DNA from: Eledone cirrhosa
Lineage: Eukaryota
Length of the DNA stretch: 64,000 nt
Assembly (NCBI GenBank): GCA_964016885.1
Contig: OZ024742.1
Coordinates: 16,058,001 to 16,122,000, forward strand
Direction: 5' to 3'
The position numbers and the translations under genes are program-made. Shown one piece after another: positions 3,331 through 64,000 of the stretch; the stretch's first letter is position 1; the number at the start of each line of letters is the position of its first letter. The notes beneath the pieces are model-generated. The model did not search any database. It had not been told where the DNA came from and saw only the letters and a list, made by a program, of their open reading frames with translations.

Positions 3331-3338
<8 letters not shown>

Positions 3339-3572
3339 TAAAATAACAGATTAAAGTTTAAGCAAAGAATCGCTGCTTTCACCCTTAACGGGATCTTCTG
3401 AAACTAAAAATGTCAATCTGTAAACGCAGAAGTGAATATTTCAAAAAAACGTTGCAACCGGAGGAAGGCAGGAAGACGATACGAAATATTTGCTCTACGG
3501 TTCTTATATATTTGATATATATTTATCCTTATCGAGCCCTCTTTGGATTTTAGTCTTCAAATTTATTATTAT

Positions 3573-3839: not shown

Positions 3840-4074
3840 TTCCTGTCAGCATGACTTGGCAAGCTATTTAGAACGCTGGTTTAACAACTTTACTTCCCTC
3901 CGGAGAAGAGATATTATCTCGAAAATTAAGGATATTTAAATAAATTTAAGGTAAAAGACAACATCTTTTGCATTTGCATTTATATTTCATATCCATACCT
4001 GCATTGTTTTGGCTTTACAAATACAAACGTCTATACCTCATTACACAATGCTTCAAGTGAACTATAACTTCCTC

Positions 4075-4078
<4 letters not shown>
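3840..4078. repeat. Dispersed (TA)n-flanked repeat; also at 7370-7567 (direct) and 7160-7310 (inverted)
   Basis: Shared gcaagctatttagaac...gagatattatctcgaaaattaagga...tttggctttacaaatacaaacgt. 7160-7567 forms an inverted arrangement. Confidence 0.75.
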
Positions 4079-4847: not shown

Positions 4848-5030
4848 AGTGATTGGCAGTATCGGTAGAGGGTCGGACGCCATGCTTTCCAGCATAGTTA
4901 CGTCCCTTTACGATCTGAGTTCAAATCCCGCCGAGGTTGACTTTGCCTTTTATCCTTACGGGGTCGATAAAATAAAGTACCAGTAATGCACTGGGTAATT
5001 GCTGGCCTTGTGCCTAAAGTAGAAACAATT
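4848..5030 (+). mobile_element. tRNA-derived SINE
   Basis: A-box-like tggcagtatcgg, B box gagttcaaatccc, body gactttgccttttatccttacggggtcgataaaataaagtaccag, 3' end ggccttgtgcctaaagtagaaacaatt; at least 5 copies in the window. Confidence 0.85.
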
Positions 5031-5044
5031 ATATATATATATAG

Positions 5045-5235
5045 GGCGGTGGATTGGCAGTATAGGTAGAGGGTCGGACGCCATGCTTTCTAGCATAATT
5101 ACGTCCCTTTACAGTCTGAGTTCAAATCCCGCCGTGGTTAACTTTGCCTTTCATCCTTACGGGGTCGATAAAATAAAGTACCAGTAATGTACTAGGTATT
5201 TGGTGGCCGTGTGCCTAAAGTAGAAACAATTATAT
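5045..5235 (+). mobile_element. tRNA-derived SINE (tandem second copy)
   Basis: Same A box, B box, body and tail as 4848-5030. Confidence 0.85.
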
Positions 5236-5351
5236 TATATATATATATAATGTTATTAAAACTCTTTTCCTAATATAGCAAGCGTTAAACTAATACATAT
5301 TTTCAATGTGCTGTATCTCTATTGTTTTTTTTCTGTACTTTTCGCACGCGT

Positions 5352-6646: not shown

Positions 6647-6687
<41 letters not shown>

Positions 6688-6695
<8 letters not shown>

Positions 6696-7141
6696 ATATT
6701 AACAAATGGAAACTATATTTATAAAACCATATTTATTTTATTATACATATTTCAAGGGCTACCAAGGCAAATTATGGTGCGCTTTCATCAGATAAAGTAC
6801 AATACAGATTTGTTTTATAAATAAATATTGACATACCCTGAAAAAGACAACCTTAACGGTTCCTATCCAGGAAGCTCCAACCGTTAAGGTTGTCTTTTTC
6901 AGGGTATGTCAATATTTATTTATAAAACAAATCTGTATTGTACTTTATCTGATGAAAGCGCACCATAATTTGCCTTGGTGGCCCTTGAAATATGTATAAT
7001 AAAATAAATATGGTTTTATAAATATAGTTTCCATTTGTTAATATATTGTATATTTACTCCACTAAACTGTTGAGTGCTTTATATCAGTTATAAAACATGT
7101 TAAGCTTGTTGAATCCCAACAAATTAAATATAACCTCTGCA
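6688..7141. mobile_element. Fold-back PLE pLTR-like insert with a hammerhead in each arm
   Basis: Arms 6688-6861 and 6879-7053 are reverse complements (17-nt spacer), with a unique tail to 7141; (TA)n on both sides. Family members at 12752-13073 and 63795-64000. Confidence 0.8.
6941..7006 (+). ncRNA. Type I hammerhead ribozyme motif (mirror copy on minus strand in left arm)
   Basis: tactttat-CTGATGA-aagcgcacca..tggtggccctt-GAAA-tatgta-TA-ataaaata. Stem I tttat/ataaa, quasi-palindromic stem III, AUA triplet. Confidence 0.65.
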
Positions 7142-7577
7142 TATATATATATATAGATATATATATAAAGGAGGAAGTTATAGTTCACTTGAACCATTGT
7201 GTAATGAGGTATAAACGTTTGTATTTGTAAAGCCAAAACAATGCAGGTATGGACATAGAATATAAATGCAAATGCAAAAGATATTGTTGACAATTAGTCT
7301 TTTACCTTAAATTTAAATGTCTTTAAATTTAAATGTCCTTAAATTTAAATGTCCTTAATAGCTTGCCAACTCATGATTGGCAAGCTATTTAGAACAATGG
7401 TTCAACCGCTTTACTTCCCTCCGAAAAAGAGATATTATCTCGAAAATTAAGGACATTTAAATAAATTTAAGGTAAAAGACTAATTGTCAACAATATCTTT
7501 TGCATTTGCATTTATATTCTATGTCCATACCTGCATTGTTTTGGCTTTACAAATACAAACGTTTATATATATATATG

Positions 7578-7830
7578 TTTATTAATGGATCATTCGGGGA
7601 AAGTCTGCAACAACAATAACACCTAGATGGCAGGCCGACCTCGAATCAAATATTTTTTCTGTTTGTGTATGCCATCATTCCTATATTTATTACCTAATTA
7701 TGTAATATGATGATGTCGCCAAGATATTACGTAACCAGGCCATTGAAATATATAATAGTGATTTTGCAACACTAATACTTTAAAGGAATATCACCAGTCC
7801 GGCCTTCTGTTGTTTCAATGAAACCTGTAT
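7578..7830. repeat. Dispersed repeat; inverted copy at 15244-15492
   Basis: ggatcattcggggaaagtctgc...tcaatgaaacctgtata is the reverse complement of 15244-15492. Confidence 0.8.
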
Positions 7831-7845
7831 ATATATTTTTTTTTA

Positions 7846-8637
7846 TATTAAAAAAAAGCCTTCGTGAGCCACCTTTTTTTAAGTAAAAAGAAATTCAAAC
7901 ACACACACACAACACACACACACACACACGCGCGCACACACACAAGCACACAAATAAACATACATATCTTTACATTCTTTATTCAATAGAAAATCTGAAT
8001 TCTGACACCCCAGCGAACTAACCATATTCACTGAACCAGAACAATTCTCCCATCCCTTTCTCTTGACCATTATCTTTCACTTATCATAAAATTCTCTAAA
8101 AAGGCTACAGAATGGATTTCCAACTAAGGGCGCGAACATTTAATGAAAACTTGTTCACGTTACAGCCATAATTTCATTTATAACCAATCAAATTACGCTT
8201 ATTTAAAAAAAAAGCTTTCGTGAGCCCCTTTTTCAAGTAAAAAGAAATTCAAACACTCATATATGAAAAAACAACCTGTGACACCCCCCTCTTATTTGAA
8301 GAACTATTGTAACGCTAACTGGCGCGAAATTTATTATAATTATTGATCAACCAATCAAATTACTTCTCGAAAAACCTGGCATTTCGAGCCACTTTTTCCA
8401 TATAAAACAAGTAACATTCAGAGACCAACCAGATGTGAGAAAAACCAGAGACCCTCTATCTCAACTCTACTTTTGAAAAGCAGAAGAACTGCGAAACCGG
8501 TAAAGGAACCAAATAAATATATATATATTTTTTTTAAAGAAGACTCCAGTTTCATTTTCGATTTCATCTTTTTTTCTTTATACTTTCACTCGTGTAGGAC
8601 ACCTCGTTTATTTTTAATTTCGTAAAAAAAACCTCAC

Positions 8638-8645
<8 letters not shown>
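7846..8645 (-). mobile_element. ~800-bp dispersed repeat (Helitron-like 5' end on minus strand); second copy at 54884-55652
   Basis: Collinear high-identity match including the internal (CA)n and the terminus cctcactttctaa-(TA)n. Confidence 0.7.
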
Positions 8646-8692
<47 letters not shown>

Positions 8693-8812
8693 TATAGACA
8701 TAGAATATTCGAAAATATTCTGTATGTTTATAATAAACATTTTGAAGACCTAATCGCTATAGAATAGAATACGTCACGTATTACAATTAGATTCTCGATA
8801 AAAGCAAGGGAA

Positions 8813-8855
8813 GTAATCTACGCGTTTCATTCTCGTTAGAAATCATCAGGACTAC
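8813..8855 (-). ncRNA. Type I hammerhead ribozyme motif (5 minus-strand copies: 8813, 9123, 9433, 9743, 10053)
   Basis: Reverse complement reads gtagtc-CTGATGA-tttctaacgagaat-GAAA-CGCG-TA-gattac. Confidence 0.8.
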
Positions 8856-10649
8856 ATATCCAGTGCTTTTATCGAGAATGACACAGCTAGAGACTTATAG
8901 AATACTTAGCTGTGTACAGGAACTGGTTTGAAAGAGCAGTTGCCGGTCCGGCAGAAATTAGAAATTGGAATAAATGCTCTGAAATAGCGATATATATGTG
9001 AATATAGACATAGAATATTCGAAAATATTCTGTATGTTTATAATAAACATTTTGAAGACCTAATCGCTATAGAATAGAATACGTCACGTATTACAATTAG
9101 ATTCTCGATAAAAGCAAGGGAAGTAATCTACGCGTTTCATTCTCGTTAGAAATCATCAGGACTACATATCCAGTGCTTTTATCGAGAATGACACAGCTAG
9201 AGACTTATAGAATACTTAGCTGTGTACAGGAACTGGTTTGAAAGAGCGGTTGCCGGTCCGGCAGAAATTAGAAATTGGAATAAATGCTCTGAAATAGCGA
9301 TATATATGTGAATATAGACATAGAATATTCGAAAATATTCTGTATGTTTATAATAAACATTTTGAAGACCTAATCGCTATAGAATAGAATACGTCACGTA
9401 TTACAATTAGATTCTCGATAAAAGCAAGGGAAGTAATCTACGCGTTTCATTCTCGTTAGAAATCATCAGGACTACATATCCAGTGCTTTTATCGAGAATG
9501 ACACAGCTAGAGACTTATAGAATACTTAGCTGTGTACAGGAACTGGTTTGAAAGAGCGGTTGCCGGTCCGGCAGAAATTAGAAATTGGAATAAATGCTCT
9601 GAAATAGCGATATATATGTGAATATAGACATAGAATATTCGAAAATATTCTGTATGTTTATAATAAACATTTTGAAGACCTAATCGCTATAGAATAGAAT
9701 ACGTCACGTATTACAATTAGATTCTCGATAAAAGCAAGGGAAGTAATCTACGCGTTTCATTCTCGTTAGAAATCATCAGGACTACATATCCAGTGCTTTT
9801 ATCGAGAATGACACAGCTAGAGACTTATAGAATACTTAGCTGTGTACAGGAACTGGTTTGAAAGAGCGGTTGCCGGTCCGGCAGAAATTAGAAATTGGAA
9901 TAAATGCTCTGAAATAGCGATATATATGTGAATATAGACATAGAATAATCGAAAATATTCTGTATGTTTATAATAAACATTTTGAAGACCTAATCGCTAT
10001 AGAATAGAATACGTCACGTATTACAATTAGATTCTCGATAAAAGCAAGGGAAGTAATCTACGCGTTTCATTCTCGTTAGAAATCATCAGGACTACATATC
10101 CAGTGCTTTTATCGAGAATGACACAGCTAGAGACTTATAGAATACTTAGCTGTGTACAGGAACTGGTTTGAAAGAGCGGTTGCCGGTCCGGCAGAAATTA
10201 GAAATTGGAATAAATGCTCTGAAATAGCGATATATATGTGAATATAGACATAGAATATTCGAAAATATTCTGTATGTTTATAATAAACATTTTGAAGACC
10301 TAATCGCTATAGAATAGAATACGTCACGTATTACAATTAGATTCTCGATAAAAGCAAGGGAAGTAATAAACGCGTAGATTACTTCCCTTGCTTTTATCGA
10401 GAATCTAATTGTAATACGTGACGTATTCTATTCTATAGCGATTAGGTCTTCAAAATGTTTATTATAAACATACAGAATATTTTCGAATATTCTATGTCTA
10501 TATTCACATATATATCGCTATTTCAGAGCATTTATTCCAATTTCTAATTTCTGCCGGACCGGCAACCGCTCTTTCAAACCAGTTCCTGTACACAGCTAAG
10601 TATTCTATAAGTCTCTAGCTGTGTCATTCTCGATAAAAGCACTGGATAT

Positions 10650-10692
10650 GTAGTCCTGATGATTTCTAACGAGAATGAAACGCGTAGATTAC
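10650..10692 (+). ncRNA. Type I hammerhead ribozyme motif (7 plus-strand copies, every 310 bp from 10650 to 12510)
   Basis: Stem I gtagtc/gattac, core CTGATGA (10656-62) and GAAA (10677-80), stem II ttct-aacg-agaa, palindromic stem III ACGCGT, GUA triplet (predicted cut after 10686). Confidence 0.8.
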
Positions 10693-12709
10693 TTCCCTTG
10701 CTTTTATCGAGAATCTAATTGTAATACGTGACGTATTCTATTCTATAGCGATTAGGTCTTCAAAATGTTTATTATAAACATACAGAATATTTTCGAATAT
10801 TCTATGTCTATATTCACATATATATCGCTATTTCAGAGCATTTATTCCAATTTCTAATTTCTGCCGGACCGGCAACCGCTCTTTCAAACCAGTTCCTGTA
10901 CACAGCTAAGTATTCTATAAGTCTCTAGCTGTGTCATTCTCGATAAAAGCACTGGATATGTAGTCCTGATGATTTCTAACGAGAATGAAACGCGTAGATT
11001 ACTTCCCTTGCTTTTATCGAGAATCTAATTGTAATACGTGACGTATTCTATTCTATAGCGATTAGGTCTTCAAAATGTTTATTATAAACATACAGAATAT
11101 TTTCGAATATTCTATGTCTATATTCACATATATATCGCTATTTCAGAGCATTTATTCCAATTTCTAATTTCTGCCGGACCGGCAACCGCTCTTTCAAACC
11201 AGTTCCTGTACACAGCTAAGTATTCTATAAGTCTCTAGCTGTGTCATTCTCGATAAAAGCACTGGATATGTAGTCCTGATGATTTCTAACGAGAATGAAA
11301 CGCGTAGATTACTTCCCTTGCTTTTATCGAGAATCCAATTGTAATACGTGACGTATTCTATTCTATAGCGATTAGGTCTTCAAAATGTTTATTATAAACA
11401 TACAGAATATTTTCGAATATTCTATGTCTATATTCACATATATATCGCTATTTCAGAGCATTTATTCCAATTTCTAATTTCTGCCGGACCGGCAACCGCT
11501 CTTTCAAACCAGTTCCTGTACACAGCTAAGTATTCTATAAGTCTCTAGCTGTGTCATTCTCGATAAAAGCACTGGATATGTAGTCCTGATGATTTCTAAC
11601 GAGAATGAAACGCGTAGATTACTTCCCTTGCTTTTATCGAGAATCTAATTGTAATACGTGACGTATTCTATTCTATAGCGATTAGGTCTTCAAAATGTTT
11701 ATTATAAACATACAGAATATTTTCGAATATTCTATGTCTATATTCACATATATATCGCTATTTCAGAGCATTTATTCCAATTTCTAATTTCTGCCGGACC
11801 GGCAACCGCTCTTTCAAACCAGTTCCTGTACACAGCTAAGTATTCTATAAGTCTCTAGCTGTGTCATTCTCGATAAAAGCACTGGATATGTAGTCCTGAT
11901 GATTTCTAACGAGAATGAAACGCGTAGATTACTTCCCTTGCTTTTATCGAGAATCTAATTGTAATACGTGACGTATTCTATTCTATAGCGATTAGGTCTT
12001 CAAAATGTTTATTATAAACATACAGAATATTTTCGAATATTCTATGTCTATATTCACATATATATCGCTATTTCAGAGCATTTATTCCAATTTCTAATTT
12101 CTGCCGGACCGGCAACCGCTCTTTCAAACCAGTTCCTGTACACAGCTAAGTATTCTATAAGTCTCTAGCTGTGTCATTCTCGATAAAAGCACTGGATATG
12201 TAGTCCTGATGATTTCTAACGAGAATGAAACGCGTAGATTACTTCCCTTGCTTTTATCGAGAATCTAATTGTAATACGTGACGTATTCTATTCTATAGCG
12301 ATTAGGTCTTCAAAATGTTTATTATAAACATACAGAATATTTTCGAATATTCTATGTCTATATTCACATATATATCGCTATTTCAGAGCATTTATTCCAA
12401 TTTCTAATTTCTGCCGGACCGGCAACCGCTCTTTCAAACCAGTTCCTGTACACAGCTAAGTATTCTATAAGTCTCTAGCTGTGTCATTCTCGATAAAAGC
12501 ACTGGATATGTAGTCCTGATGATTTCTAACGAGAATGAAACGCGTAGATTACTTCCCTTGCTTTTATCGAGAATCTAATTGTAATACGTGACGTATTCTA
12601 TTCTATAGCGATTAGGTCTTCAAAATGTTTATTATAAACATACAGAATATTTTCGAATATTCTATGTCTATATTCACATATATATCGCTATTTCAGAGCA
12701 TTTATTCCA

Positions 12710-12751
<42 letters not shown>

Positions 12752-12756
<5 letters not shown>

Positions 12757-13073
12757 GATATTAAATAAATGGAAACTATATTTATAAAACCATATTTATT
12801 TTATTATATATAATTCAAGGGTACCACGACACATTGGTACGCTTTCATCAGAGAAAATACAAAGTTTGTTTTATGAATAGAGACATACTCATGAAAATCA
12901 TACCTTATCGGTTGGATATTCATATGATTTTCATGAGTATGTCTCTATTTATAAAACAAACTTTGTGTTTTATCTGATGAAAGCGTACCAATGTGTCGTG
13001 GTACCCTTGAATTATATATAATAAAATAAATATGGTTTTATAAATATAGTTTCCATTTATTTAATATCATTAT
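12752..13073. mobile_element. Fold-back insert of the 6688-7141 family; hammerhead core mutated (GAAT)
   Basis: Arms 12752-12902 and 12922-13073; CTGATGA at 12974-80 followed by aagcgtacca..tggtaccctt-GAAT-tatatata-ataaaat. Confidence 0.8.
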
Positions 13074-13086
13074 ATATATATATATA

Positions 13087-15250
<2,164 letters not shown>

Positions 15251-15572
15251 GTTTCATTGAAACAACAGAAGGCCGGACTGGTGATATTCCTTTAAAGTAT
15301 TAGTGTTGCAAAATCACTATTATATATTTCAATGGCCTGGTTACGTAATATATTGGTGACATCATCATATTACATAATTAGGTAATAAATATAGGAATTA
15401 TGGCATACACAAACAGAAAAAATATTTGATTCGAGGACGGCCTGCCATCTATGCGTTATTGTTGTCGCAGACTTTCCCCGAATAATCCAGTAAACTGTTG
15501 AGTGCTATAAATCAGTTATAAACATTTATATTTGTCGGACTTCCAACAAATTAAATACCCCTTCTACTTATA

Positions 15573-16420
15573 TATCTATAAGACTTATATGCCCTTCCAA
15601 ATCTGACATTGGCATCATTAGTAAAAAAAAATTAGATAGAGTCATCCCACAATTAAGAAAACCTGTTAATTTACCACTCTGGGAAAACACATCCCAGGTA
15701 ACTAACTGGTTTACTAATATTAGAAATAAATCATCTGCTTCATTTCTACAATTCGATATAGATGCTTATTATCCCTCTATATCACCCATACTCCTGAACA
15801 AAGCCTTGATATTTGCCAAAAATAGATCAAACTTAACTATGGATCACATTAATATTATCACGCACGCTAGACAAACACTACTGGAATTTCAGAAGGAATA
15901 CTGGACCAGAAATACATATAGTAATCTATTCGACATTACTATGGGCTCTAGTGAATCTGCCCAAATTACCGATCTTGTGGGCATCTTTCTTCTATTTAAC
16001 ATAACTGCTTCTTTTCCCCACCTTAAAGGTGGTTTATATCGTGATGACTGTCTTCTTCTTTCCACTAACCTTAGCCTATCAGAAATTGAAAAAAAACAAA
16101 AAAACTTATTAGAACTTGCCTCAAAGACCATTATAGTCTCACTATTACATTTGAAAACACCAGTAAAGTAGTTAATTTCCTTGATATAACTTTAGACTTA
16201 TCTACGGGTATCTACAAGCCTTACAATAAACCTAACCAAAACTTACATTACATACACTCACAATCCAATCACCCTAAATCTATCCTTAAAAACCTAGCAT
16301 ATAATATCTCACTCAGAATTTCTAACCTTTCATCTAACCAGGATGTATTCGATAAAAATGCGACCTTTTATAACGAAGCTTTAGCTAGAAGCGGCCACAA
16401 AAACAAATTAGTACCTAGTA
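15573..16420 (+). pseudogene. PLE reverse transcriptase, disrupted
   Basis: ORF 15806-16171 plus flanking frames; frameshifts near the A-run at ~15625 and at ~16100-16170. Confidence 0.85.
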
Positions 16421-16937
16421 CCAATAATACTACAAACATACAACCCAGTATTACCAACAAACACCAAATGAAAAACACACACCTAAATGCCACTCACACT
16501 ATACCCATAAATACCAACTTAAAACTTAATTTATCTACCTCTTCTCACATAAAATATAATAACTTTCAAAACACCATTCATCCTTATACTCCAATATACG
16601 TTAATAACATTACTAACAAAATCCTAATAATCAGTCTAAAACATCTAAATCAGTGAATCTAACTAAACATATGTATAATAAATTCCCTAATACTAACTCT
16701 CTTAGTAAACATCAGGATACATCGTATAAAAATTAAAAAAACAGCATCGAAACCGTAATAGACGAGTTACTTGATATAATGCTCCATTTAATCTACAAAT
16801 TAAAGATAATATCCCTAAACATTTTTTTACTATCCTAGAGAAAAACTTCCTGCGAAACCATAAATACCATCAAATTTTAAATAGATCAACGGTCAAATTC
16901 TCCTACTCCACTACCAAAAATATACAACAAAATATAA

Positions 16938-17534
16938 GTGCCTACAATGCATATAAATGTAAAAAAAACCATGAATATACCACCAACACATCAAACTAAC
17001 CATAATACTAAAATAAACCACAGCAAACCACCGTCTCCTTCACATACAACAAGTCGAATAAATTCCACACCTAATTTGACTAACTCCCCTGATATAATAT
17101 TCACGAAAGGTTGTAACTGTAGAAACAAAGCAAATTGCCCATTAAAAGGAAATTGCCTTATTAATAACATAGTATATAAATGTAAAATTAACACTAAGGA
17201 CTCAACTTATTCATATATAGGAGCTACTTCTAACCAATTTAAAGTAAGATTTAATACCCACAAACACAGTTTTAAAAATGCCACATTAGCTAATACAACA
17301 TTCCTGGCTGAAATAATTAATAATTATAGAAAAAAGAATATCGATTATAACCTGACCTGGAGTGTGCTCAAAAGGGCCACCCCTTATCAAAATAACAGAT
17401 ATGAGTGTAGATTATGTTCCCAGGAACTTTTTGAAATAATGAAATCTAAGGATATCCTATTAAATAAGCGACAAGAATTAATTATATCGTGCAATCATAG
17501 AATTAGAACTTTCAAATATTATAAACCTAATTAA
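16938..17534 (+). CDS. PLE GIY-YIG endonuclease domain (open segment of disrupted ORF)
   Basis: GCNCRNKANCPLKGNCLINNIVYKC...YSYIGATSNQFKVRFNTHKHSF...CRLCSQE...LLNKRQELIISCNH. Confidence 0.85.
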   Translation: MPTMHINVKKTMNIPPTHQTNHNTKINHSKPPSPSHTTSRINSTPNLTNSPDIIFTKGCNCRNKANCPLKGNCLINNIVYKCKINTKDSTYSYIGATSNQFKVRFNTHKHSFKNATLANTTFLAEIINNYRKKNIDYNLTWSVLKRATPYQNNRYECRLCSQELFEIMKSKDILLNKRQELIISCNHRIRTFKYYKPN

Positions 17535-18250: not shown

Positions 18251-18434
18251 TCATTATTTCTGCGGGTAATTGCTGGCCTTGTGCCTAAAGTAGAAACAAT
18301 TATTTCTGAAGACAGCATATATATATGTGTAGGTATGTATATTCCCTCTGATAGTTTGTAAAAGTTTTACATAGATCTATATGATATACATACCAACACA
18401 CACATATATCCTAGAAACGATCGTAAAATGATGA
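18251..18434 (+). ncRNA. Type I hammerhead motif with ~100-nt stem II, at the PLE 3' end
   Basis: CTGAAGA 18306-12, GAAA 18414-17, palindromic stem III ACGATCGT, GUA triplet; downstream aaatgatga pairs with tcattattt (18251-59). Confidence 0.65.
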
Positions 18435-20370: not shown

Positions 20371-23300
20371 CCCCTCCCTTCCAACGCGGAAGATGACCCT
20401 CGTTCGTCATCAGACGGGGAGGAGCACTTCCACACAATCAAAAGAAAAAAAAGAAAACACACCTCAGACACACAAATGAAAACAACCCCTCCCCAAAACA
20501 TAACACAGACACTAACACAAAAGAGCACACAACAGCAGCAAACAAAAAACACCACACAAAAACAAAAACATGCATACACATACATAAACACAAGAAATAA
20601 AAACTGCTAAACATTGTATACAACAACAATTTATTAAAAACCCAAGGGCCTAAATTCACTCAGGCAGGGGTTTTCCCCCACCTCGAAATGATTAAGGCCC
20701 CAGAGGACACTTATAAACACTTACAAAATACTAAAAAACAACTTTAAAGAGGACGTGCCCCCCCCCTCTTGCGTCGGGTCCATTAACCGCGTCCTCCTAA
20801 AAAACTTTCCCACCCCTCCCCAAACACCCAGACAACTCCAAACACCCCAACCACACAACACACTGATGCCCCTACACTTCCACAAACCACCACCCCATCC
20901 AGCAACCCATCCCCCACCCTCATGGAAATTGTGCAGCCCGATACCCGGGACGCAGAGAGGTAAGTGCCTTTTCTCTTCACCACCAACATGGCTATGCTAA
21001 GAGTAGGCTGTCTAAATGCGCGTGGCCTGGGCTCAACTTGGAAGCAAGCAATGCTTCTAAATAACTTCAGGTCACAACGTATAGATGTGATGGTTATTTG
21101 CGAGGCCCGGATCAGCAACGTGCGGCAGCTGGCCCCACCTTTGATGACTTTGAGATGCACGCATCTCTCTGTCAGCCCGGACGTGGGGGTGGGGTTGTCG
21201 TTCTGCTGAAAAAACATCTGGGTCTCGCAACACAGACGGTACATTTGGACCCGGAGGGTTGACTCGTGGTTCCTGACCTTGGCAGTGGTGAAGGCGGAGC
21301 GTTTAGGCTGGTAGCCGTCTACGGCCCTTTCGGGTCAACGCGGCCGGACTTCTTCCATCGTCTGGAGACTTTTCTAGGGACGTCCCGCTCCTTGCTATTA
21401 GTGGGGGACTGGAATGGTATCCTAGCTGCACGTTGGGACTACGTAGGGGCCTGTCCCGATAGAGAGGGGTGTAACAGCCTCAAAGGGTTAATCGGTCGAT
21501 TTGACCTGGCCGATAGATATCGACTAGATTTTCCGACTGCGCCAACCTGGACTTGGGCAAACCGTAGCAGATCATCTAGGTCGTACCTAGATAGGTTCTT
21601 AGTTAGAAATAAGGATAAGGACTTTTTAAATTGTCCAAAAATGCTCATGGTTGGCTATTCAGACCACAAGTTAGTGACCTGCATGGTCAATCTTGACAGA
21701 ACGCATTCACAGGGACCGGTTACTGGAAGCTCAACTTGTCCTTATCGGCAAGTAAGGCTTATAGGGACCGGATTAGCACTTTAGTTAAGGAGCGTTTGAC
21801 GGGCGCCATCGTCAACAGCAGGTGGTGGGGATCTCTCAAAAGAGAGGTTAGAGTTGTCTCTATAGGATTTAGTAAGGAGTTAGCCTCAAATAGAAATAGG
21901 AAGGAAAGGGAATTGGTAGATAGTGTAGAAGAGGCAATTAGAAGCGGCGACGTGGCCAGAGTGCTAGCGTCGAAAACGGCCCTGGGCCAGTTCTTCTGCG
22001 CGAAACACGAAGGCTGCATCGTCCGAAGCAAACTACGTGCTCTGGGAAACGAGGGGACCAAAGCTGTTAGCTGGGCCCGCGTGAGAGAAGCCAAAAGAGG
22101 GAGTAGATCCACTATCCGGTCTTTGCGAGACCAGGATGGACGGGTGATCCTTGAACCTAAGCAGATGTGCGAGGCTTTTCAAAAGCATTTTGCCAGATTG
22201 TTCGGAAGGAGCGGGGAACCGGTTGGGGAAGTGGGCTTCGGTCCATACCTCGACGGCCTGCCGCGTCTCTCGGACAGGGAGGAAAAGTCCTGCGAGGAGC
22301 CGATTTCAGCCGCTGAGATAGAGGACGTGCTGAGCCAATGCGGTAAACGCAAATCCCCGGGTCTCGATGGTCTTCCATACGAACTATATCTAGCTATGCC
22401 GGACTTGTTCCCCGATCTCCTCGAAGCGGTCTACTGCAACTGGCAACAGAACGGGAGAATTCCCTGTGCTGTGACCAAGGGTGTAGTCACGCTAGTGAGG
22501 AAGGACGAGAACAAGGGGGACGATATAAATAATTTCAGGCCCATATCTGCTAAATACAGAGTTACAAATTTTGGCCAAGGTGCTAGCAAAGAGGTTGTCG
22601 CTTGTCGTGGGCAACCTGGTGGGAGATGCGCAGACATGTGCAATCCCGTCCAGGTCCATCCACGACAACCTCCACCTCATGCGATACATCATAGAGAGGG
22701 CTGGAAACGAACCCGGCTTTGGTGGAGCTCTGATCAACTTGGATCAATCTAAGGCGTTCGATAGGGTCGACCATGGTTACTTTGATGCGGTGCTAGCGGC
22801 GGCAGGCTTCGGACCCGGTTTCAGGGGCTGGATCAATGCCATGCACAGCAGCCGCATCTGCTCTAGGGTCAAGGTGAACGGCTACCTCTCGGAGCCGTTC
22901 GAAATCGCGCGGTCCATCCGACAAGAGTGCCCTCTCTCCTCCCTTCTGTATGTAATGACTCAAGAGCCACTGCTGCGGAAGTTGGAGTTGTTGCAGGGCA
23001 TTCCGTTAGAACCGGGATTGCGGAAAGCGGTGTCGGCCTACGCCGATCACGTAACAGTAATGGTGTCGACGTGATCGGAAATCGGGTCGATCAGCACCTT
23101 ACTGGAGAAGTACGAAAGGTTTACAGGGGCTAAGCTGAACCGGGACAAGTCGATCGGTCTGCAACTCGGCACGTGGAGAGGCAGATCGATGCCCTCCGAT
23201 GGCGTCGTCGGGCGCTGGACGGAGAGCCCGGTGAAGTTGCTCGAGGTCTGGTTCGGACCAGACCTCCAGGTGGAGAAGAACTGGGGTGAGGTAACGAACA

Positions 23301-24657
23301 GGGTGTTTGCACTGTCCCAGAAGTGGGCCGAGTGCAAACTGTCCCTGAAAGGTCGGGCGGATGGCGAACACTTATATAGCGTCCGTCATCTACTACCGCC
23401 TGACCGTTGTGCCTTGCACAAGGGAAACTTCGCCAAAATGGAGCGCGCACTCTTCTAATTCCTTTGGAAGAAGCGGGGTCCTATGGTGAGGAGATCCATC
23501 TGCTGTCAACACCCTTCGAAAGGAGGGCAGGGGATGCCGTGGCTAATGATACGTAAACACGCATTAAGGCTACGGCACCTCCAGGTATTCCTCACGGGTC
23601 AACCTGTGTGGGCCTCGTTTGTGAGGCGAGCCTTTCCCAGACTCGTCTCGCTCACCTTGCTGCAATCCTGGGTCAAACAAAGACCGAGAAAACTGGGCGC
23701 CTTCCACACCGAGTGTGCCCAGGCGCTCACGGCTCTCTGGCAGGCGGACCCGGCTGTCAGTGGAGAGGGCTGGTGGTTAGCAGGTGCGACGCCGCCCTCG
23801 GAGAAGCCCTAGGCATGGAGGTGACGAATTGGCCAACCTGTTCGGTAGGACATTCAGACCGGGACCCATGGATAACTTCCAGAGGTCCCTGGCCCGGAAG
23901 TGCTATCGAGGGGCTCTGCCCGTTCGAGAAAGGCTCTACAGACACGGGCGCCCGGGTAGGGACCCCTCGAAAAAGATCTGTCCCAGATGCGTGCGCGACG
24001 AGGAAACCGTTGCACACGCATTGGTACACTGCTCGGGCATTGCCGATCTGTGGGGCTATGTCGAACAACTGCTGTCAAGGGTGGGACCGATCCGGTTGAC
24101 CACCAAGTCTATTGTAACGATCAAGCCGCCTCCCCTCTTCAAAAACGAAGAAGAGGCGGTGTTTCTGTGCGTAATAGCCATGGCGAAAGAGGTTGTATGG
24201 TGGACGCGTCTGAAAAGACTGAGGTCAGACACCTTTCTCTCTGGCCAACAACTGGTCCGTTTCTTCCGATATCATTTCGGAAGAAGGATCAGGATGGAGA
24301 GAGGGGTGCCGTTTTTATGAAAGATGAGTGAAAGTGGCGAGAATGGCCCGTGTAAATGGGCCTTCACTCTACATCAGACTATAGGTGAGGAAGATGAAAG
24401 ATCAAGGGAGCACCCCCTCTCTGTGCTCCCGAGGAGAAGGGTTGCACTCTTTTTTCGGGGGTGGGGGGGTGCGACTCCCCCAAGGCGCCTCCTGCCTATT
24501 GAGGATTTTGTTATTAAATTTATTTTTGTTATATTTTATATTTTATTTTTTATATCTTGTTATTGCCTCCTCCTTAGTGAGGACACCTTTTTATGTAAAC
24601 TCCCCCATTGTACTTGTCCCACTTTTTGATGCCCTGGTGGCAAATAAAAAAGAAAGT
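20371..24657 (+). mobile_element. Tx1-type (L1 clade) non-LTR retrotransposon copy 1, truncated in ORF1
   Basis: ORF2 from ATG 20987: APE (GCLNARGL, VGDWNG, SYLDRF, SDHKLV), RT (KSPGLDG, NLDQSKAFDRVDH, RQECPLS), CCHC (CPRC..ETVAHALVHC); AATAAA then tatctatatatcta; several frameshifts. Confidence 0.92.
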
Positions 24658-24671
24658 TATCTATATATCTA

Positions 24672-27600
24672 GTGTTAGCGGGGGACTGAATGGCATCTTA
24701 GACGCACGTTGGGACTATGTAGGAGCTTGTGATAATAGAGGGGGCAGGGGGTGTAATAGCCTCAAAAATCTCATCAGCCAATTCCAACTGGCAGATAGAT
24801 ATCGACTAGACTTCCCAACTGAACCACTGTGGACCTGGAGCAACCGCACTGGGTCTTCTAGATCGTATTTAGATAGATTTTTAATTAGACAGAATGATAA
24901 GGAAACATCAAGCTGTCCACAAATGCACATGGTTGCCCATTCAGACCACAAATTAGTCACCTGCGTAGTAAACCTTGATAGAACACATAGACAGGGACCC
25001 GGATACTGGAAGCTAAACATGTCGCTCCCGGGGCGTAAGGCCTACAGTAAACGGATTAGCACCTTAGTTAAGTGCCAGTTAACGGGAGCGATCATCAACA
25101 GGTGGTGGAGCTCTCTCAATAGAGCAATTAGAATAGAATCGATAGCATTTAGCAAGGAAGAGGCTTTAGACAAAAAAAACTGAAAAAGAACTGGGAGTTA
25201 AAATAGAAGAGGCACTTAGGAATGGCAGTACAGGTGACGTGCTAGCGGCGAGAACGGCACTAGACCAGGTTGTATTGTCAGCAGTAGAACACGTGCTCTA
25301 AGAAACAAGGGAGCCAAAGCTGTTAGCTGGGCCCGAGTGGCAGAGGCGAAAAGTGGCAATAAATCCACAATTCGGTCTTTGCAAAACAAAGATGAACGCA
25401 TTATACTTGAACCCAAGCAGATGTGCACGGCCTTCCAGCAGCATTTTGCATAACTGTTCGAGCAAGCGGTATGTCGAGGGAGATGATGGTCTTCAGCTTT
25501 TACCTCGACTCTCGAGCACGGATGCAGAGAGCTGCGAAAGGCCGATCACAGCGGGCGAAATAGAAGATGCCCTTAGGCCACTGCGGGAAACGCAAATCAC
25601 CCGGTTTAGAGGTCTACCCTATGAGTTTTACATAGGCATGCCAGACTTGTTCTCTGGCGTCCTCGAAGCGGTCTACTGCAACTGGCACCAGAACGAGAGG
25701 ATTCCCAGTTCTGTAGGCAGAGGCGCAGTAACACTGATCAGGAAAGATGAGAACAAGGGGGATGAGATAAGCAATTTCAGGCCCATAACTCTGCTCAACA
25801 CAGGGTTAAAGATTTTGGCCAAGGTGTTAGCAGCGAGAACCTGGTAGGGGAAGCCCAAACGTGTGCAATCCCGACCAGGTCCATACACGACAACCTCCAC
25901 CTCATGCGATACACCATAGAGAGGGTAGGGTGTAAACCTGGCATCGGTGGGGCTCTGGTCAATTTAGATCAGTCTAAGGCATTTGATAGGGTCGACCATC
26001 AATACTTGGAAGCGGTTCTCAAGGCAGCCGGCTTCGGTCCCATCTTCAGAGGCTGTATAGCTGCCATGCACACCAGCATCTGATCGGCAGTCAAGGTGAA
26101 TGGCTACCTATCAGAGCCATTCCAAATCATGCGCTCTAAATCATGCCCTGTCTCCTCCATTCTGTATGTACTGACTCACGAGCCGTTACTGCGGAAGATG
26201 GAGCTGTTGCAGGGAATCCCGATCGAACCAGGACTGCGGAAAGCAGCGTCGGCCTATGCCGATGGCATAACCGTAATGGTGTCGAAAACCTCGGAAATCG
26301 GGGTAATCGGCAACCTATTACAGGAATACGAAACGTTGACAGGAGCAAGACTAAACCCAAAAGTCTGTCGGTTTGCAACTCGGCACATGGAGAGGAAAAC
26401 CCATGCCTTCCGACAGTGTTGTTGGACGCTGGACGGAAGGACCGGTGAAATTGCTCGGGCTCTGGTTTGGTCCAGACCTCCAGGTGGACAAGAACTGGAA
26501 CGAGGTCGCGGCGAAGGTGTTTGCACTCCCCCAGAAGTGGGCTGAGTGCAAACTCTCCTTAAAAGGTCGAGCGGAGGTGGCGAACATTTACATAGCGTCC
26601 GTCATTTCCTACCGCTTGACAGTCGTGCCTCGCCCCCGCGAATACCTTACCAAAATGGAACGCCTACTCTTCAAGTTCCTCTGGAAGAAACAGGCTCCAT
26701 TGGTGAGGAGATCCATCTGCTGTCAACACCCTTCTAACGGAGGGCTGGGCATGCCGTAGCTGATGATGCGCAAACACGCGCTGAGGCTACGCCATCTCAG
26801 GTATTCCTGACCGGTTAACTGGTGTGGCTGTCGTTTGTGAGACAAGCTCTTCCACAACTCGTCTCACTAACAGAGCTGCAGTCCTGGGTCAAGCGAAGAC
26901 CGAAAATGGGTGCCTGGCACCTCGAGTGCCTACAGGCGCTCACAGCCCTCTATCAAGCGGAAACGGCAATCAGCGGAGACTCCACTTCGACATTCTATAG
27001 GGGATTAGTTGAGGATAAGTGCGACGACGTTCTCGGGGAAACTCTAGACATCGAGGAGGACGAACTGACCAGTCTGTTCGGGAGGACTTTCCGTCCAGGG
27101 CCTATGGATAACGTCCAGAGGTCTCTGGCCTGGCAGTGCTACCGAGGAACTCTACCAGTTCGAGACAAAATCTACAGGCACGGACGCCCTGGCAGAGATC
27201 CTGCCAAAAGGACCTGTCCAAAATGCGAGCAGGACATCGAAAACGTTCTGCACGAAATTGTTCAGTGCCCAGGGGTGACCGACTTGAGGAATCATGTCGA
27301 ACAGCTGCTGTCACGTGTGGGACGCATCCAGTTGTCAGCCGAGTCCATCGTGAGGATCACCCCACCGCCTTTATTTAAGAACGAAGGAGAGGCGGTTTTC
27401 CTCTGTCTGGTGGCTATGGGGAAAGAGGTAATATGGTGGACGAGGTTAAAAGGACTGAGGGCAAACACCTTTCTCTCCGGACAACAACTTATCCCCTTCT
27501 TTAAGTATCACTTCAGAAGGAAGGTGAGAGTGGAGAGAGAGGTGCTACACCCCAGTAAATTTGCTGGTGGGTGAATGTGGCGAAAATGGCCCGAGTGAAT

Positions 27601-27876
27601 GGGCCTTCTCTGTATATAAACTTGTAGGTTGAGGAAGATAAACAGAGGGAAGACAGGAACACCTACAAAACGTGTTCCTGGTGTTGAGGGCTGTTCTATC
27701 CACGGGGTGTAAAACAACCCTGCAGTAACGTTCCCCCTATTGGAGATTTCAATTGTTATTTTATTATATATAGTTTATTGTTATTTATTAATGTTAAAGT
27801 TATTTTTATGTAAAACCCCCGCCGTCACGTCTTTATTGTCCCATTTTTGTACGCCCCTGTGGCAAATAAAGAAAGA
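24672..27876 (+). mobile_element. Tx1-type LINE copy 2 (divergent subfamily), truncated within APE
   Basis: Starts at the GDxNG-equivalent motif; same domain order; ends aataaagaaaga followed by (TATC)n 27877-27968. Confidence 0.92.
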
Positions 27877-27969
<93 letters not shown>

Positions 27970-28192
27970 CTCTTTACGATGGACACATGTGTTGAGCTCG
28001 CTCGGTAAGTTTTGTTTAAATTCATCCGGAAATTGTAAACTGTAAACTTTCATTTTTGTACCATTTTGTAGAGGGACTGCCAGGTCAAATTTTGATCTGG
28101 TCGGTCTCTCAAAATATTCTGCGCCTTTGGGCGAAATAGTATTGTAAACATTTTATCTTTCGAAAAACTTCGAAAAACCCTATTTTGAGAAA

Positions 28193-30070
28193 ATGGCTGA
28201 AGCATCTTCACCATCAATCAAAGAAGGAAAGGGGAAGTCATAATCACAGCTTCCCCCTGCCACTGTCACAGCAGCAGATGCCAAAGGCAGAGGTCAGAGA
28301 GAGGAAGAATTGTCTTCACCTGTTGACCGACCACTAGATGTAGCCACAACTATACAAGAAATTGAAAACAACAACAACAACAACGACAACAACAGCAACA
28401 ATAAAGACAACAAAAACAACAACAACACAAACGTCACAAGTATCCACACACCAAACGAGAAAGACAACTACAATAACAAAGATGAAAACAACTCAAACGA
28501 CGAAAAACAAAACAATACAAACACCAACAACGAAAACAAAATATCTTTTGCACAAACGGCTAAATTATCAATCACGTATGTGCTGGAAGATATTTCAAAA
28601 GCAAAAGAAATGCTGGAAAAAGCCAAGAAATATGTATCTTTTGGCGAAAACAGTTCGTTTTCTATAAATTCACCCCCAGAACTAAAAAAACAGACGGAAT
28701 TACGAACTGTCGTATTCCGTACAATTTTAAATAAAACAAAAAAACCAGCACAACCATCTCAAGCTGAAATTCAGTTAGTACTGAAAGAAGCGATGAGAGA
28801 CATCACTTTCATACAAAAGGATAAACTCTATGGGAGTTTATCCATATTGATGAAAGACGAATTGGCGGCGAAAAAATACTCTGTGTCGCCAATTCGGTCC
28901 ACACACTACACCTTCTTCCCCACCTACATGGGTAAAAAACCCCAGAGGATATGGATAACCACCATCATCCCAAACATAAACTACTGGGGGCTACTAACCG
29001 GTTTCCTCAATTTAGACGAGGACAACCTCATTTCAATAGGGAAGGCATCCGGCGACGCGTTCAGTGGAACGAGCATCGAAGTTCTGACCCAAATAAGGCC
29101 AGAACGTATCGCCCAAATCCCTGAGCGCGTCATGCTGGATGACCGTACCCACCTCAACATTATTGTGGAGGGTAGGCGTCCCTCCTGTTACCTCTGTGGC
29201 AATAGAGGTCACCTGAGGGCTGCCTGTCCCCAGCTCACACAGAAAAAAACACTGCTACCAACACCAACACCACCCTAACAACAACAACAAAAACAACCAC
29301 AACAACAACAACAACAAAAACCAACAACACCACCACCACCACTACCACCACCACCACAACAACAACAACAACAAACACGTGAACAAATGACACAGAATAC
29401 TGTCCCACCCAATCCCTCCCCACCCAAAACAAATACAAAAACACACACACTGCAAACACTACCAGAAAACATACCCCTCCCACCCAACAAGGAAGACGAA
29501 CCCCTTTCGTCGCAAGACGAAAAAGATCCCTTCCAACAAGTAAAAAGAAAGAAGAGGAGACGCACCACAGACACACATGTTAACTTTAACCCCCCCCCCC
29601 CCAAGAGAACACAAACTACACACAAACCACCCCTCCCTGTCACACAACACTAACTGCTACACAAAAAAAGACCTTACAATATACATACATGAACACAGAC
29701 AACAAAGAATTACGGAAAACAATTTCAGCAAACCCTTCGGTCCAAACTGAAGGGCCTAACTTTATAACTGCTGTGGGACTACCTCATTTAAAAATGATAA
29801 AAGTCCCAATGAACTTGTACAAAACACTGAAAATAAATTTCACGGAGGACGTGCCCCCCCCCCCCCCCCCCCCCCCCGCTGCGCCAAACCAATCAACCAC
29901 GTCCTCCTAAAAAAATCCCCCCCCCGACCCAGACACCCACTCAACCACAAACACCCCAACCCCACAACACACCGATGCCCCTTCACTTCCACAAACCACC
30001 CCCACCCAACAACCCATCCCCAACCAGCATGGAAATTGAGCGGCCCGTTTCCCGGGACGCAGAGAGGTAA
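28193..30070 (+). pseudogene. Tx1 ORF1 (gag-like, CCHC knuckle), disrupted
   Basis: ATG at 28193, early stop, open 28310-29278 with CYLCGNRGHLRAAC, then low-complexity Thr/Pro segments, basic KRKKRRR, ending MEIERPVSRDAER* at 30070; 3' half homologous to 20371-20963. Confidence 0.75.
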
Positions 30071-30094
30071 GTGCCTTTTCTCCTTACCACCAAC

Positions 30095-33000
30095 ATGGTT
30101 GTGCTAAGAGTAGGGTGTCTTTGACGACTTTGAGATGCACGCATCTCTCTGTCAGCCCGGAGGTGGGGGTGGGGTTGTCGTTCTGCTGCAAAAACATCTG
30201 GGCCTTGCAACACAGATAGTTCACTTGGACCCAGGGCGTCGACTGGTGGTGCTGGACCTTGGCAGTGGTGAAGGTGGAGCCTTTAGGCTGGTAGCCGCAT
30301 ATGCCCCTTTTGGGACAGAGCGGCCTGACTTTTTCCAGCGTCTGGAGTCTTTTCTAGGGACGTCCCGTTCCCTGCTTTTAGTGGGGGATTGGAATGGTAT
30401 CCTGGATGCACGTTGGGACTATGCAGGGGCATGTCCCGATAGAGAGGGGTGCAACAGCCTCAAGGGGTTACTCGGCCGATTTGACCTGGCCGATAGATTT
30501 CGACTAGATTTTCCAACGGTGCCAACCTGGTCTTGGTCAAATCGCAGCGGATCATCTAGATCGTACCTAGATAGATTTTTAGTTAGAAATAAGGACAGGG
30601 ACATTTTAAGTTGTCCAGAAATGCTCATGGTTGGCTATTCAGACCACAAGTTGGTGACCTGCATGGTCAACCTTGATAGAACGCATAGACAGGCCCCCGG
30701 TTACTGGAAGCTCAACTTGCCGGCAAGTAGAGCTTACAGGGATCGGATTAGTACGTTAGTTAAGGAACGGTTGACTGGAGCGATCGTCAACAGCAGGTGG
30801 TGGGTATCTCTAAAGCGAGAGATTAGAGTAGTCTCGATAGAATTTAGTAAGGTTCTAGCTGCGGATAGGAATAGGAAGGAAAGGGAGCTAATAGATAGAG
30901 TAGAAGAGGCAATTAGAAGCGGCGACGTGGCCAGAGTGCTAGCGTCGAGAACGGCTTTGAGCCAGTTTTTCGACGCGAAGCACGAAGGCTGCGTTGTCCG
31001 AAGTAAAATACGTGCTCTAGGGAACGAGGGGACCAAAGCTGTTAGCTGGGCCCGCGTGACAGAGGCTAACAGTGGAACTAAATCAACCATCCGGTCTTTG
31101 CGAGACCTGGATGGACGGGCGATTCTTGAGCCTAAGCAGATGTGTGAGGCCTTTCAAAGGCACTTTGCCCGACTGTTCGGGAGGGGCGGGGAGCCGGTTG
31201 GGAACGTGGACTTCGGTCCATACCTCGACGGCCTGCCGCGTCTCTCGGACAGGGAGGCGAAGTCCTGCGAGGAGCCGATTTCGGCCGCTGAGATAGAGGA
31301 CGTGCTGAGCCAATGCGGCAAACGCAAATCCCCGGGTCTCGATGGTCTTCCTTACGAATTATATCTAGCTATGCCGGACTTGTTCCCCGATCTCCTCGAG
31401 GCGGTCTACTGCAACTGGCAACAGAACGGGAGAATTCCCTGTACTGTGACCAAGGACGTAGTCACGCTAGTGAGGAAGGACGAGAACAAGGGGGACGAAA
31501 TAAGTAACTTCAGGCGCATAACTCTGCTAAATACAGAGTTACAGATTTTGGCCAAGGTGCTAGCAAAGAGGTTGGCGCTTGTCGTGGGCAACCTGGTGGG
31601 AGATGCGCAGACATGCGCTATCCCGTCCAGGTCCATCCATGACAACCTCCACCTCATGCGATACATCATAGAGAGAGTTGGGAACCAACCCGGCTTTGGT
31701 GGGGCTCTGATCAACTTGGATCAATCTAAGGCGTTCGATAGGGTCGACCATGGTTACCTGGATGCGGTGCTAGCGGCGGCAGGCTTCGGACCCGTTTTCA
31801 GGGGCTGGATCACTGCTATGCACAGCAGCCGCATCTGCTCTAGGGTCAAGGTGAACGGCTACTTCTCGGAGCCGTTCAAAATCGCGCGGTCCATCCGACA
31901 AGGGTGCCCTCTCTCCTCCCTTCTGTATGTGTTGACTCTCGAGCCACTACTGCGGAAGTTGGAGTTGTTGCAGGGCATCCCTTTGGAACCGGGATTGCGG
32001 AAAGCGGTGTCGGCCTACGCCGATCACGTGACAGTAATGGTGTCGACGGCCTCCGAAATCGAGGCGGTCGGCACCTTACTGGAGGAGTACGAAAGGTTCA
32101 CAGGGGTTAAGCTGAACCGGGACAAGTCGATCGGTTTGCAACTCGGCACGTGGAGGGGCAGACCGATGCCCTCCGATGTCGTCGTCGGACGCTGGACGGA
32201 GGGCCCGGTGAAGTTGCTAGGGGTCTCGTTCGGACGGGACCTCGAGGTGTAGAAAAACTGGACGGAGGTTACGAACAGGGTGTTTGCACTGACCCAGAAG
32301 TGGGCCAGTTGCAAACTATCCCTGAAAGGTCGGGCGGAGGTGGCGAACACCTATATAGCGTCCGTCATCTACTACCGCCTGACCGTAGTGCCCTGCCCAA
32401 GGGAAACCCTCGCCAAGATGGAGCGCGCGCTCTTCCAATTCCTTTGGAAGAGGCGGGCTCCTATGGTGAGGAGATCCATCTGCTGTCAACACCCTTCGAA
32501 AGGAGGGCTGGGGATGCCATGGCTAATGATGCGTAAACACGCATTAAGGCTACGGCACCTCTACGTATTCCTCACCGGTCAACCGGTGTGGGCCTCGTTT
32601 GTGAGACGAACCTTTCCCAGACTCGTCTTACTCATCGAGCTGCAATCCTGGGTCAAGCAAAGACCGAGAAAACTGGGCGCCTGGCACACTGAGTGTGCCC
32701 AGGCGCTCACCGCCCTCTGGCAGGCGGATCCGGTTATCAGTGGAGACTCCACCGCAACATTCTATAGAGGGCTGGTACGCAGCAGGTGCGACGACGCCCT
32801 CGGAGAAGCCCTAGACATGGAGGAGGACGAACTGGCCAGCCTGTTCGGTAGGACATTCAGCCCGGGACCTATGGACAACTTCCAGAAGTCCCTGGCCTGG
32901 CAGTGCTACCGAGGGGCTCTACCCGTTCGAGAAAAGCTCTACAGACACGGGCGCCCGGGTAGGGACCCCGCCAAAAAGATCTGTCCCAGATGCGTGTGCG

Positions 33001-33397
33001 ACGAGGAAACCGTTGCACACGCATTGGTACACTACTCGGGCGTAGCCGATCTGTGGGGCTATGTCGAACAACTGCTGTCAAGGGTGGGACCGATCGGTTG
33101 ACCACCGAGTCTATTGTAAAGATCAAGCCACCTCCCCCCTTCAAAGATGAAGGAGAGGTGGTGTTTCTGTGCGTAATAGCCATGGTGAAAGAAGTTGTAT
33201 GGTGGACACGTCTGAAAGGACTGAGGTCAGGCACCTTTCTCTCTGGCCAACAACTGGTCCGTTTCTTCCGATATCATTTCGGAAGAAGGATCAGGATGGA
33301 GAGAGAGGTGCTCCACCCCAGTCGTTTTTATGAAAGGTGGGTGAAAGTGGCGAGAATGGCCCGTGTGAATGGGCCTTCTCTTTACATAAGCCTGTAG
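30095..33397 (+). pseudogene. Tx1 ORF2 (APE-RT-CCHC), disrupted
   Basis: 705-aa open stretch 30135-32252; 127-nt deletion after 30120, stop at 32250-52, frameshift near 33095; catalytic motif reads YADH. Confidence 0.9.
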
Positions 33398-33661
33398 GTG
33401 GAAAGGAGGAAGGAACGAGGGAGCACCCCCTCTCTGTGCTCCTGAGGAAAAGGGTTGCACACTTTTTTCGGGGGTGTGTGCGACCCCCCAAGGCGCCTCC
33501 TCTCTATTGAGGATTTTGTTATGAATTTTATTTTTTGTTATATTTTATTTTATTTTTATATATTGTTATTGCCTCCTCCTTATTGAGGACGCCTTTTTGT
33601 GTAAACTCCCCCCTTTGTACTTGTCCCACTTTTGATGCCCTGGTGGCAAATAAAAGAAACA

Positions 33662-33723
<62 letters not shown>

Positions 33724-33769
33724 CCTATCTATCTATCTATCTAGCTATCAACCTCCCTTTCTCTGTAGC

Positions 33770-35986: not shown

Positions 35987-36060
<74 letters not shown>

Positions 36061-36061
<1 letters not shown>

Positions 36062-38862: not shown

Positions 38863-38892
38863 CATACATACATACATACATACATACATACA

Positions 38893-54883: not shown

Positions 54884-55760
<877 letters not shown>

Positions 55761-60731: not shown

Positions 60732-64000
<3,269 letters not shown>

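Follow-up and report, generated by a model that had tools for sequence, protein, structure and literature searches.

A 310-nt hammerhead repeat of Eledone cirrhosa as a likely animal retrozyme, arranged head-to-head in (TA)n tracts

The 64,000-nt stretch of the genome of the cephalopod Eledone cirrhosa analysed here (GenBank assembly GCA_964016885.1, contig OZ024742.1, positions 16,058,001 to 16,122,000 of the forward strand; called the window below, with positions counted from its first letter) contains two arrays of a tandem repeat, each 310-nt unit of which carries the motif of a hammerhead ribozyme. We consider, with good confidence, that this repeat is an animal non-LTR (long terminal repeat) retrozyme, the RNA of which likely cuts itself and circularises and is likely copied into (TA)n by a Penelope-like reverse transcriptase (RT). 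A more specific reading, proposed tentatively and at slightly less than even weight, is that the arrays are fresh fossils of a Hydra-type Penelope protein that copied an RNA cut by its ribozyme, working from the two ends of a (TA)n break and from two fixed start sites about 30-45 nt apart, and that stopped at the cut.

The tandem repeat has a period of 310 nt, a GC content of 34.5% and about 22 units in the genomic DNA of the window. From cut site to cut site one unit spans 10377..10686 on the plus strand (unit positions 1-310); an original prediction, made from the letters alone, had taken a monomer of 338 nt ending at 10714, which is one true unit plus 28 nt of the next. The type I hammerhead, recognised by its sequence and by alignment with the Rfam family Hammerhead_HH9, lies at 10644..10696 on the plus strand. 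Its stem I is formed by 10650-10655 and 10687-10692 (GUAGUC/GAUUAC) plus a bulge and a GGA/UCC extension, followed by the core box CUGAUGA (10656-10662), stem II with its loop (10663-10676; a U.U base pair at the base and a 6-nt loop), GAAA (10677-10680) and the palindromic ACGCGU (10680-10685), helix III being a single A-U pair on this palindromic loop. Cleavage is predicted after GUA at 10686 (unit position 310). The core is intact in all 19 full aligned units, and GAAACGCGUA is found at 21 sites. At the gathering threshold Rfam gave no match in the whole window; in a relaxed search of a 141-nt stretch Hammerhead_HH9 (RF02275) was the best of six weak matches, with 15.8 bits (E 0.14) below a gathering score of 52. 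The array shares with this family the type I topology, a 6-bp stem I with a bulge and a 6-nt loop II ending in A, but differs in its helix III, which is reduced to a palindrome. No CUGANGA core was seen by eye in the printed minus strand of the unit, leaving the ribozyme on one strand only. According to the list of open reading frames (ORFs) the arrays hold no ORF of at least 120 amino acids and no RT or GIY-YIG ORF, and an LTR-type layout was not seen in them, with no search aimed at a primer-binding site or a polypurine tract.

Stem I is extended by a perfect 16-bp helix on the plus strand (10626..10714), as the original prediction had noticed: 10626-10641 is the exact reverse complement of 10699-10714 at 16 of 16 positions, and in the cut monomer the helix would pair positions 13-28 with 250-265. 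A perfect 16-bp stem arose in none of 300 shuffles, the longest being 13.

Animal non-LTR retrozymes have been described as low-GC tandem repeats with units of 150-450 bp that contain type I hammerheads and give highly self-paired circles, and in coral, mussel and axolotl circles were demonstrated for all three retrozymes tested (PMC7229834). The Eledone arrays are alike in tandem unit size (period 310, four arms of 3.5-7.6 units), in a type I hammerhead per unit, in their low GC (below 50%), in lacking an ORF and in a stably self-paired predicted circle, the z-score of which (-3.9 against shuffles) is unexceptional against the window background. For axolotl motifs a U.U in helix II, a palindromic one-pair helix III and far better cleavage as dimers have been reported (PMC7229834); the Eledone unit resembles HHR_Amex2 in the U.U at the base of helix II, and HHR_Amex1 and the newt motifs in the single-pair helix III with a palindromic tetraloop. 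It differs from known animal retrozymes in being a new sequence, in carrying an amphibian-style weak helix III in an invertebrate, in a circle predicted to favour the inactive fold, and in head-to-head (TA)n pairs with a one-sided tail, which are undescribed in the accessible parts of PMC7229834 and Li et al. 2026. The class, its circles and their structure are thus already in print and the Eledone unit adds a sequence. A cephalopod retrozyme and a head-to-head (TA)n retrozyme footprint were not found in the open-licence literature searched, although the supplement of PMC7229834 might list examples or describe insertion structures; by a term search of the available text of Li et al. 2026, no mollusc was sampled and tails or inverted arms go unmentioned. 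The label viroid-like, used in the original prediction, holds in the loose sense published for animal retrozyme circles (PMC7229834), and size (220-400 nt; PMC7761336), lack of coding capacity, branched fold and hammerhead are shared with hammerhead viroids and viroid-like satellite RNAs. In the strict sense it does not fit, as the array is encoded in genomic DNA, has a ribozyme of type I topology on one strand only and gives no sign of RNA-to-RNA replication.

How did the arrays arrive at their present sites? Both consist of a minus-strand arm followed by a plus-strand arm with their 5' ends meeting. In element 1 the left arm of 5.4 units (8689..10367, minus strand) has its 5' end at unit position 2 and its 3' end at 130-139 and runs into (TA)n at 8644-8688, and the right arm of 7.6 units (10368..12713, plus strand) extends from position 302 to 167 and into (TA)n at 12713-12754. 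In element 2, 48 kb apart, the left arm of 5.9 units (60732..62551, minus strand) starts at position 162-163, ends at 121-127 and also runs into (TA)n, and the right arm of 3.5 units (62551..63650, plus strand) extends from 306 to 163-165 and into (TA)n at 63649-63798. All four 3' ends thus reach (TA)n, tracts of (TA)6 or longer making up 2.4% of the window. The right arms end further along the unit than the left arms, by 28-37 nt in element 1 and 38-44 nt in element 2, the ranges arising from the overlap of the unit with (TA)n. A target-site duplication cannot be distinguished inside (TA)n, as is also noted in PMC8557442. Three of the four arm starts are no more than 9 nt away from the cut, with a naive p of 0.0009 (0.004 for the right arms alone), for a distance that was picked after the fact and arms that are not independent. 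Relative to a cut RNA, the left arm of element 1 lacks only the first base at its 5' end; both right arms extend beyond the cut site, by 5 and 9 nt, which implies that their templates were uncut, re-ligated or bridged at that point. For the left arm of element 2 the start (162-163) nearly coincides with the end of both right arms (163-167; window positions 12713 and 63650). Self-priming via the ACGCGU palindrome was rejected as source of the junctions, neither of which is centred on it. L1-type twin priming, considered in view of L1/Tx1-like RT ORFs in the window, was likewise rejected, a poly(A) tail being absent and the ends matching the Penelope pattern.

This pattern matches descriptions of Penelope-like elements, which carry an inverted and 5'-truncated copy next to their 5' end and a tail of 30-40 bp on one side and show a bias for (TA)n (PMC8557442; PMC3846280), and nearly all Hydra families insert in (TA)n (PMC8557442). 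An inverted 5'-truncated neighbour, a one-sided tail and a (TA)n target are found in both Eledone elements. In vitro the Penelope protein of a lizard cuts and extends both strands of AT-rich DNA, and the tail equals the gap between two internal RT start sites (PMC11167929). Penelope-like elements had been called 'a strong candidate' as helper of retrozymes (PMC7229834), and a Penelope origin has been proposed by Li et al. 2026 (10.64898/2026.07.22.740005) on the grounds of co-occurrence and the phylogeny of Penelope terminal repeats (pLTRs), with the mechanism left to be worked out. The footprint, as read from the sequence, supports the proposed Penelope helper. The arrays resemble the Hydra clade in the inverted 5'-truncated copy, the one-end tail of 30-40 bp, the (TA)n target and a hammerhead that likely works as a dimer, but differ in the lack of RT and endonuclease, in their many short tandem units and in a ribozyme of canonical rather than minimal size. 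A candidate helper family is represented 2.8 kb from element 1 by a broken, 5'-truncated ORF for a Penelope-like RT with a C-terminal GIY-YIG domain (15494..17534, plus strand), which is frameshifted and contains an Asn/Thr-rich insert. Its translation agrees with the definition of the Hydra clade (C-terminal GIY-YIG, CxCx5C linker, CxxC and CxH, no CCHH) in the linker CNCRNKANC and the motifs CRLC and CNH, which relatives share; three pieces of the remnant gave no match in Pfam.

Does the RNA itself fold as a circle with a working ribozyme? The 310-nt unit has a circular minimum free energy (MFE) of -67.8 kcal/mol (z -3.9) and none of 200 shuffles folded as low, so that the original prediction of a fold better than shuffled controls was borne out; the linear unit gave z -4.4. 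This signal sits mainly in the ribozyme plus clamp, which alone score z -5.5, with z -2.2 for the interior 29-249 (3 of 100 shuffles as low) and z -1.25 for 29-213, without the ACACAGCUA hairpin (10 of 100). In the circle 14 of the 16 pairs of the long helix have probabilities of 0.97-1.0; stem I reaches 0.86-1.0, ACACAGCUA 0.9-1.0, AGAAUAUU 0.65-0.97, UGCCG 0.84-0.98 and AAUACG 0.81-0.93, and the helices of AUAGCGAU (0.49-0.61) and AUGUUUA (0.34-0.44) are weaker. All eight hairpin motifs originally listed are present, but two had been written with 1-nt loops, which are impossible, and fold with 3-nt loops. The molecule is structured, as had been claimed, but 'tiled' by hairpins is too strong a word, with about 59% of the bases paired in the circle and only 39% in positions 146-213. 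Moreover, the helix had been thought to hold the ends of the monomer together for ligation. In the cut monomer positions 1-6 pair with 274-279 (p 0.99-1.0) and the last 31 nt are only weakly paired; in this model stem I and the 16-bp helix would fix the 5' end, and the two ends would lie near each other but would not be aligned by the clamp alone.

The active fold with a single ribozyme in the circle lies at -67.4 kcal/mol versus -75.3 for the ensemble, and U287-C290 (UUUC) tends to pair with GAAA. The circle is thus predicted to favour an inactive fold, and because of the sequestered GAAA and the gap of about 8 kcal/mol the circular monomer is predicted to persist. In all eight multimeric constructs, each of which spans two cut sites, a double hammerhead formed via the palindrome lies closer to the free ensemble (2.0-8.8 kcal/mol above it) than two single hammerheads (15.8-17.3), and in two of the eight it is the MFE structure. 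The clamp changes its register with the start position of the transcript, and such nearest-neighbour energies leave out tertiary contacts and magnesium.

The copies differ little. The 19 full units are 99% alike with five variable sites, and three read contigs from outside the window bring the number to eight. G295A and T12C are at unpaired positions, C191T and T30C mostly so; A20G turns a U-A pair of the clamp into U.G, keeping the pair, and T287A turns the U.U of the active stem II into A-U but weakens the inactive fold of the circle. Four variants occur in several copies or at a contig depth above 5: two are unpaired, one is the U-A to U.G change of the clamp and one the U.U to A-U change of stem II. 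The variants are compatible with selection on the fold but too thin to demonstrate it. Position 295 does not vary within an element, all 11 full units of element 1 having G and all 8 of element 2 having A, as would fit a single template for each insertion. With three private changes in about 4 kb of element 1, both insertions are very young.

Taken together, a life cycle can be proposed. As expected of its class, the element would be transcribed into multimeric RNA, which would cleave itself after GUA into unit-length pieces that would then be ligated to circles, probably by RtcB. A host ligase is likelier than self-ligation since published self-ligation yields 1-3% circles versus 30-80% with RtcB (PMC7229834). 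The palindromic helix III of one pair suggests that cleavage may need two ribozymes, acting as a double hammerhead in the multimer; as the folding results are mixed, this dimer model rests on the palindrome and on precedent (PMC4209133) and not on folding alone. The 16-bp helix could stabilise the weak ribozyme and keep the monomer closed. It could then be imagined that a Penelope-type protein, as the footprint suggests, breaks a (TA)n tract on both strands and uses the two DNA ends as primers at two sites within the RNA, at about 121-139 and 163-167; the two cDNAs would meet at their far ends and leave a head-to-head pair of arms, tailed on one side only. Fold-back copying could equally produce this picture.

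Several results weigh against this proposal, and the alternatives draw on some of them. The footprint rests on two insertions, and the retrozyme unit has no sequence match to the Hydra-type remnant or to other elements in the window, so the helper family is not identified by homology. As to the dimer model, in six of the eight constructs the energy cost of the double hammerhead is similar to that of one single hammerhead, and three longer multimers, when folded freely, show no pairing of neighbouring palindromes, one non-neighbour pair having p 0.84. Among the 19 full units there is no compensatory pair, predicted pairs are broken by two singleton changes, A111T in one copy and G180T in a contig of depth 3, and the reading of T287A depends on the model, since the inactive fold is weakened while the active one improves. 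Furthermore, element 2 carries T12C at three of its ten sites, in mirrored order (T,T,C,T,C,T in the left arm and T,T,C,T in the right arm, outward from the junction). Such an order is less easily reconciled with a single monomer circle than with fold-back copying, a mixed linear template or gene conversion. The last point would suit the view that the repeat is a detached pLTR, copied as a linear multimeric transcript and expanded locally in the DNA, with a weak or silent ribozyme, no circle needed and hairpins that serve protein binding or are by-products of fold-back. Xenopus retrozymes have been traced to pLTRs, and only one of nine predicted dimers cleaved (Li et al. 2026); cleavage by the ribozyme is not required for insertion in vitro (PMC11167929); and the two right arms running past the cut indicate a template that was uncut or re-ligated there. 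Against a detached pLTR, stems I and II of canonical size, the bulge and the 6-nt loop are unlike the minimal ribozymes of pLTRs (PMC4209133) and unlike the window's own pLTR-like families, the arm starts cluster at the cut site, and circles were found for every retrozyme tested in PMC7229834, for which reasons we regard this explanation as unlikely.

Another rival is an ordinary palindrome-rich satellite, amplified by DNA mechanisms and with an incidental fold and ribozyme motif. In its favour the folding is symmetric between the strands, the minus strand scoring z -4.5 as circle and -5.1 as linear molecule. In addition, 18 of 62 other 310-nt stretches of the window (scored with 20 shuffles each) reach z -3.9 or lower, five of them inside a plain 27-bp satellite, and the missing Rfam match at the gathering threshold points in the same direction. 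The claim of the original prediction that ordinary satellite DNA does not need such a structure therefore fails for the folding score, which plain satellite equals, but stands for the complete hammerhead core with correct stems and for the clamp not reached in 300 shuffles; these and the retroposition-type ends of both elements render an ordinary satellite very improbable. We give hardly any credence to the remaining possibility, the integrated copy of a viroid-like replicon multiplying from RNA to RNA. Size and branched fold are viroid-like, RNA-RNA replication has been raised as a possibility for mussel retrozymes (PMC7229834) and near-identical sequence occurs in 20 sequencing runs under 18 organism labels, but the minus strand lacks a CUGANGA core, 99% identity with five variable sites is unlike a quasispecies, and the absence of reads for the best-matching label points to carry-over or non-host DNA in at least that case.

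These runs contain 65-100% of the sampled words of the unit, and none is recorded as RNA. For the best-matching label, 1.9 Gb of raw data yielded 0 reads versus about 18-45 expected from these two arrays alone in a genome of 2-5 Gb. Three other runs gave one or two short contigs each, with depths of 3-49, four substitutions in all and no genomic junctions, and the joint at which read contigs go back by 310 could come from tandem DNA just as from a circle. The 18 coded labels are not taken as evidence of horizontal transfer, given the low depths, possible carry-over and the missing reads. A metagenome scan with a 15-mer, which is too short, gave 119 chance loci in 10 of 64 parts, none matching the unit over more than 22 nt, and a 20-mer of the unit had no match in collections of viral and genome contigs.

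The window is rich in related structures. A second hammerhead family (CUGAUGA, long stem II, palindromic helix III UAU(G/A)UA) at 6684-7145, 12750-13075 and 63798-64000 forms near-perfect head-to-head palindromes in (TA)n, with long and short 3' ends differing by about 87 nt and a stem II that appears to covary between copies (GCACCA/UGGUG and GUACCA/UGGUAC); both retrozyme elements adjoin a member across a shared (TA)n tract. A third family (CUGAAGA, 13089-15150) has inverted arms of 627 nt that are 97% alike, of which the right one alone bears a tail of about 95 nt. The Penelope-like remnant may have its terminal repeat at about 18300-18430, in the form of a decayed hammerhead-like motif with the palindrome CGATCG, and CAGAAGA...GAAA near 8480 and 60560 resembles a hammerhead core with one change. 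More inverted-arm elements, in which a scan found no canonical core, lie beside (TA)n at 59768-60620, 7170-7567, 3332-3482 and 3850-4075. Dispersed repeats also end at (TA)n: 7942-8643, which is the left flank of element 1, recurs at 54961-55649 (708 nt, 91%), and 7582-7828 at 15247-15493 (247 nt, 96%). The 27-bp satellite (38892-51654) comprises about 470 copies with 85% matches, and some of its stretches fold with z down to -7.8. Several decayed L1/Tx1-like copies of long interspersed elements (endonuclease, RT, zf-RVT) occupy 21697-37363, with a GC of 48-57% in an AT-rich background; the sole named relative of one such protein, one of four matches, is from Argonauta hians (59% identity). 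A short interspersed element at 4851-5245 is presumably octopus-like, judging from its look.

The main question for this class is which enzyme mobilises animal retrozymes. If the proposed copying from both ends of a (TA)n break is true, these cephalopod arrays would identify the helper of animal retrozymes directly by its insertion footprint and would preserve in the genome a trace of ribozyme cleavage in vivo. The footprint predicts two RT start sites, a prediction that is testable with an existing in vitro assay (PMC11167929), and a 310-nt self-circularising RNA with a defined helper would offer a compact model for the origin of the inverted repeats of Penelope elements.

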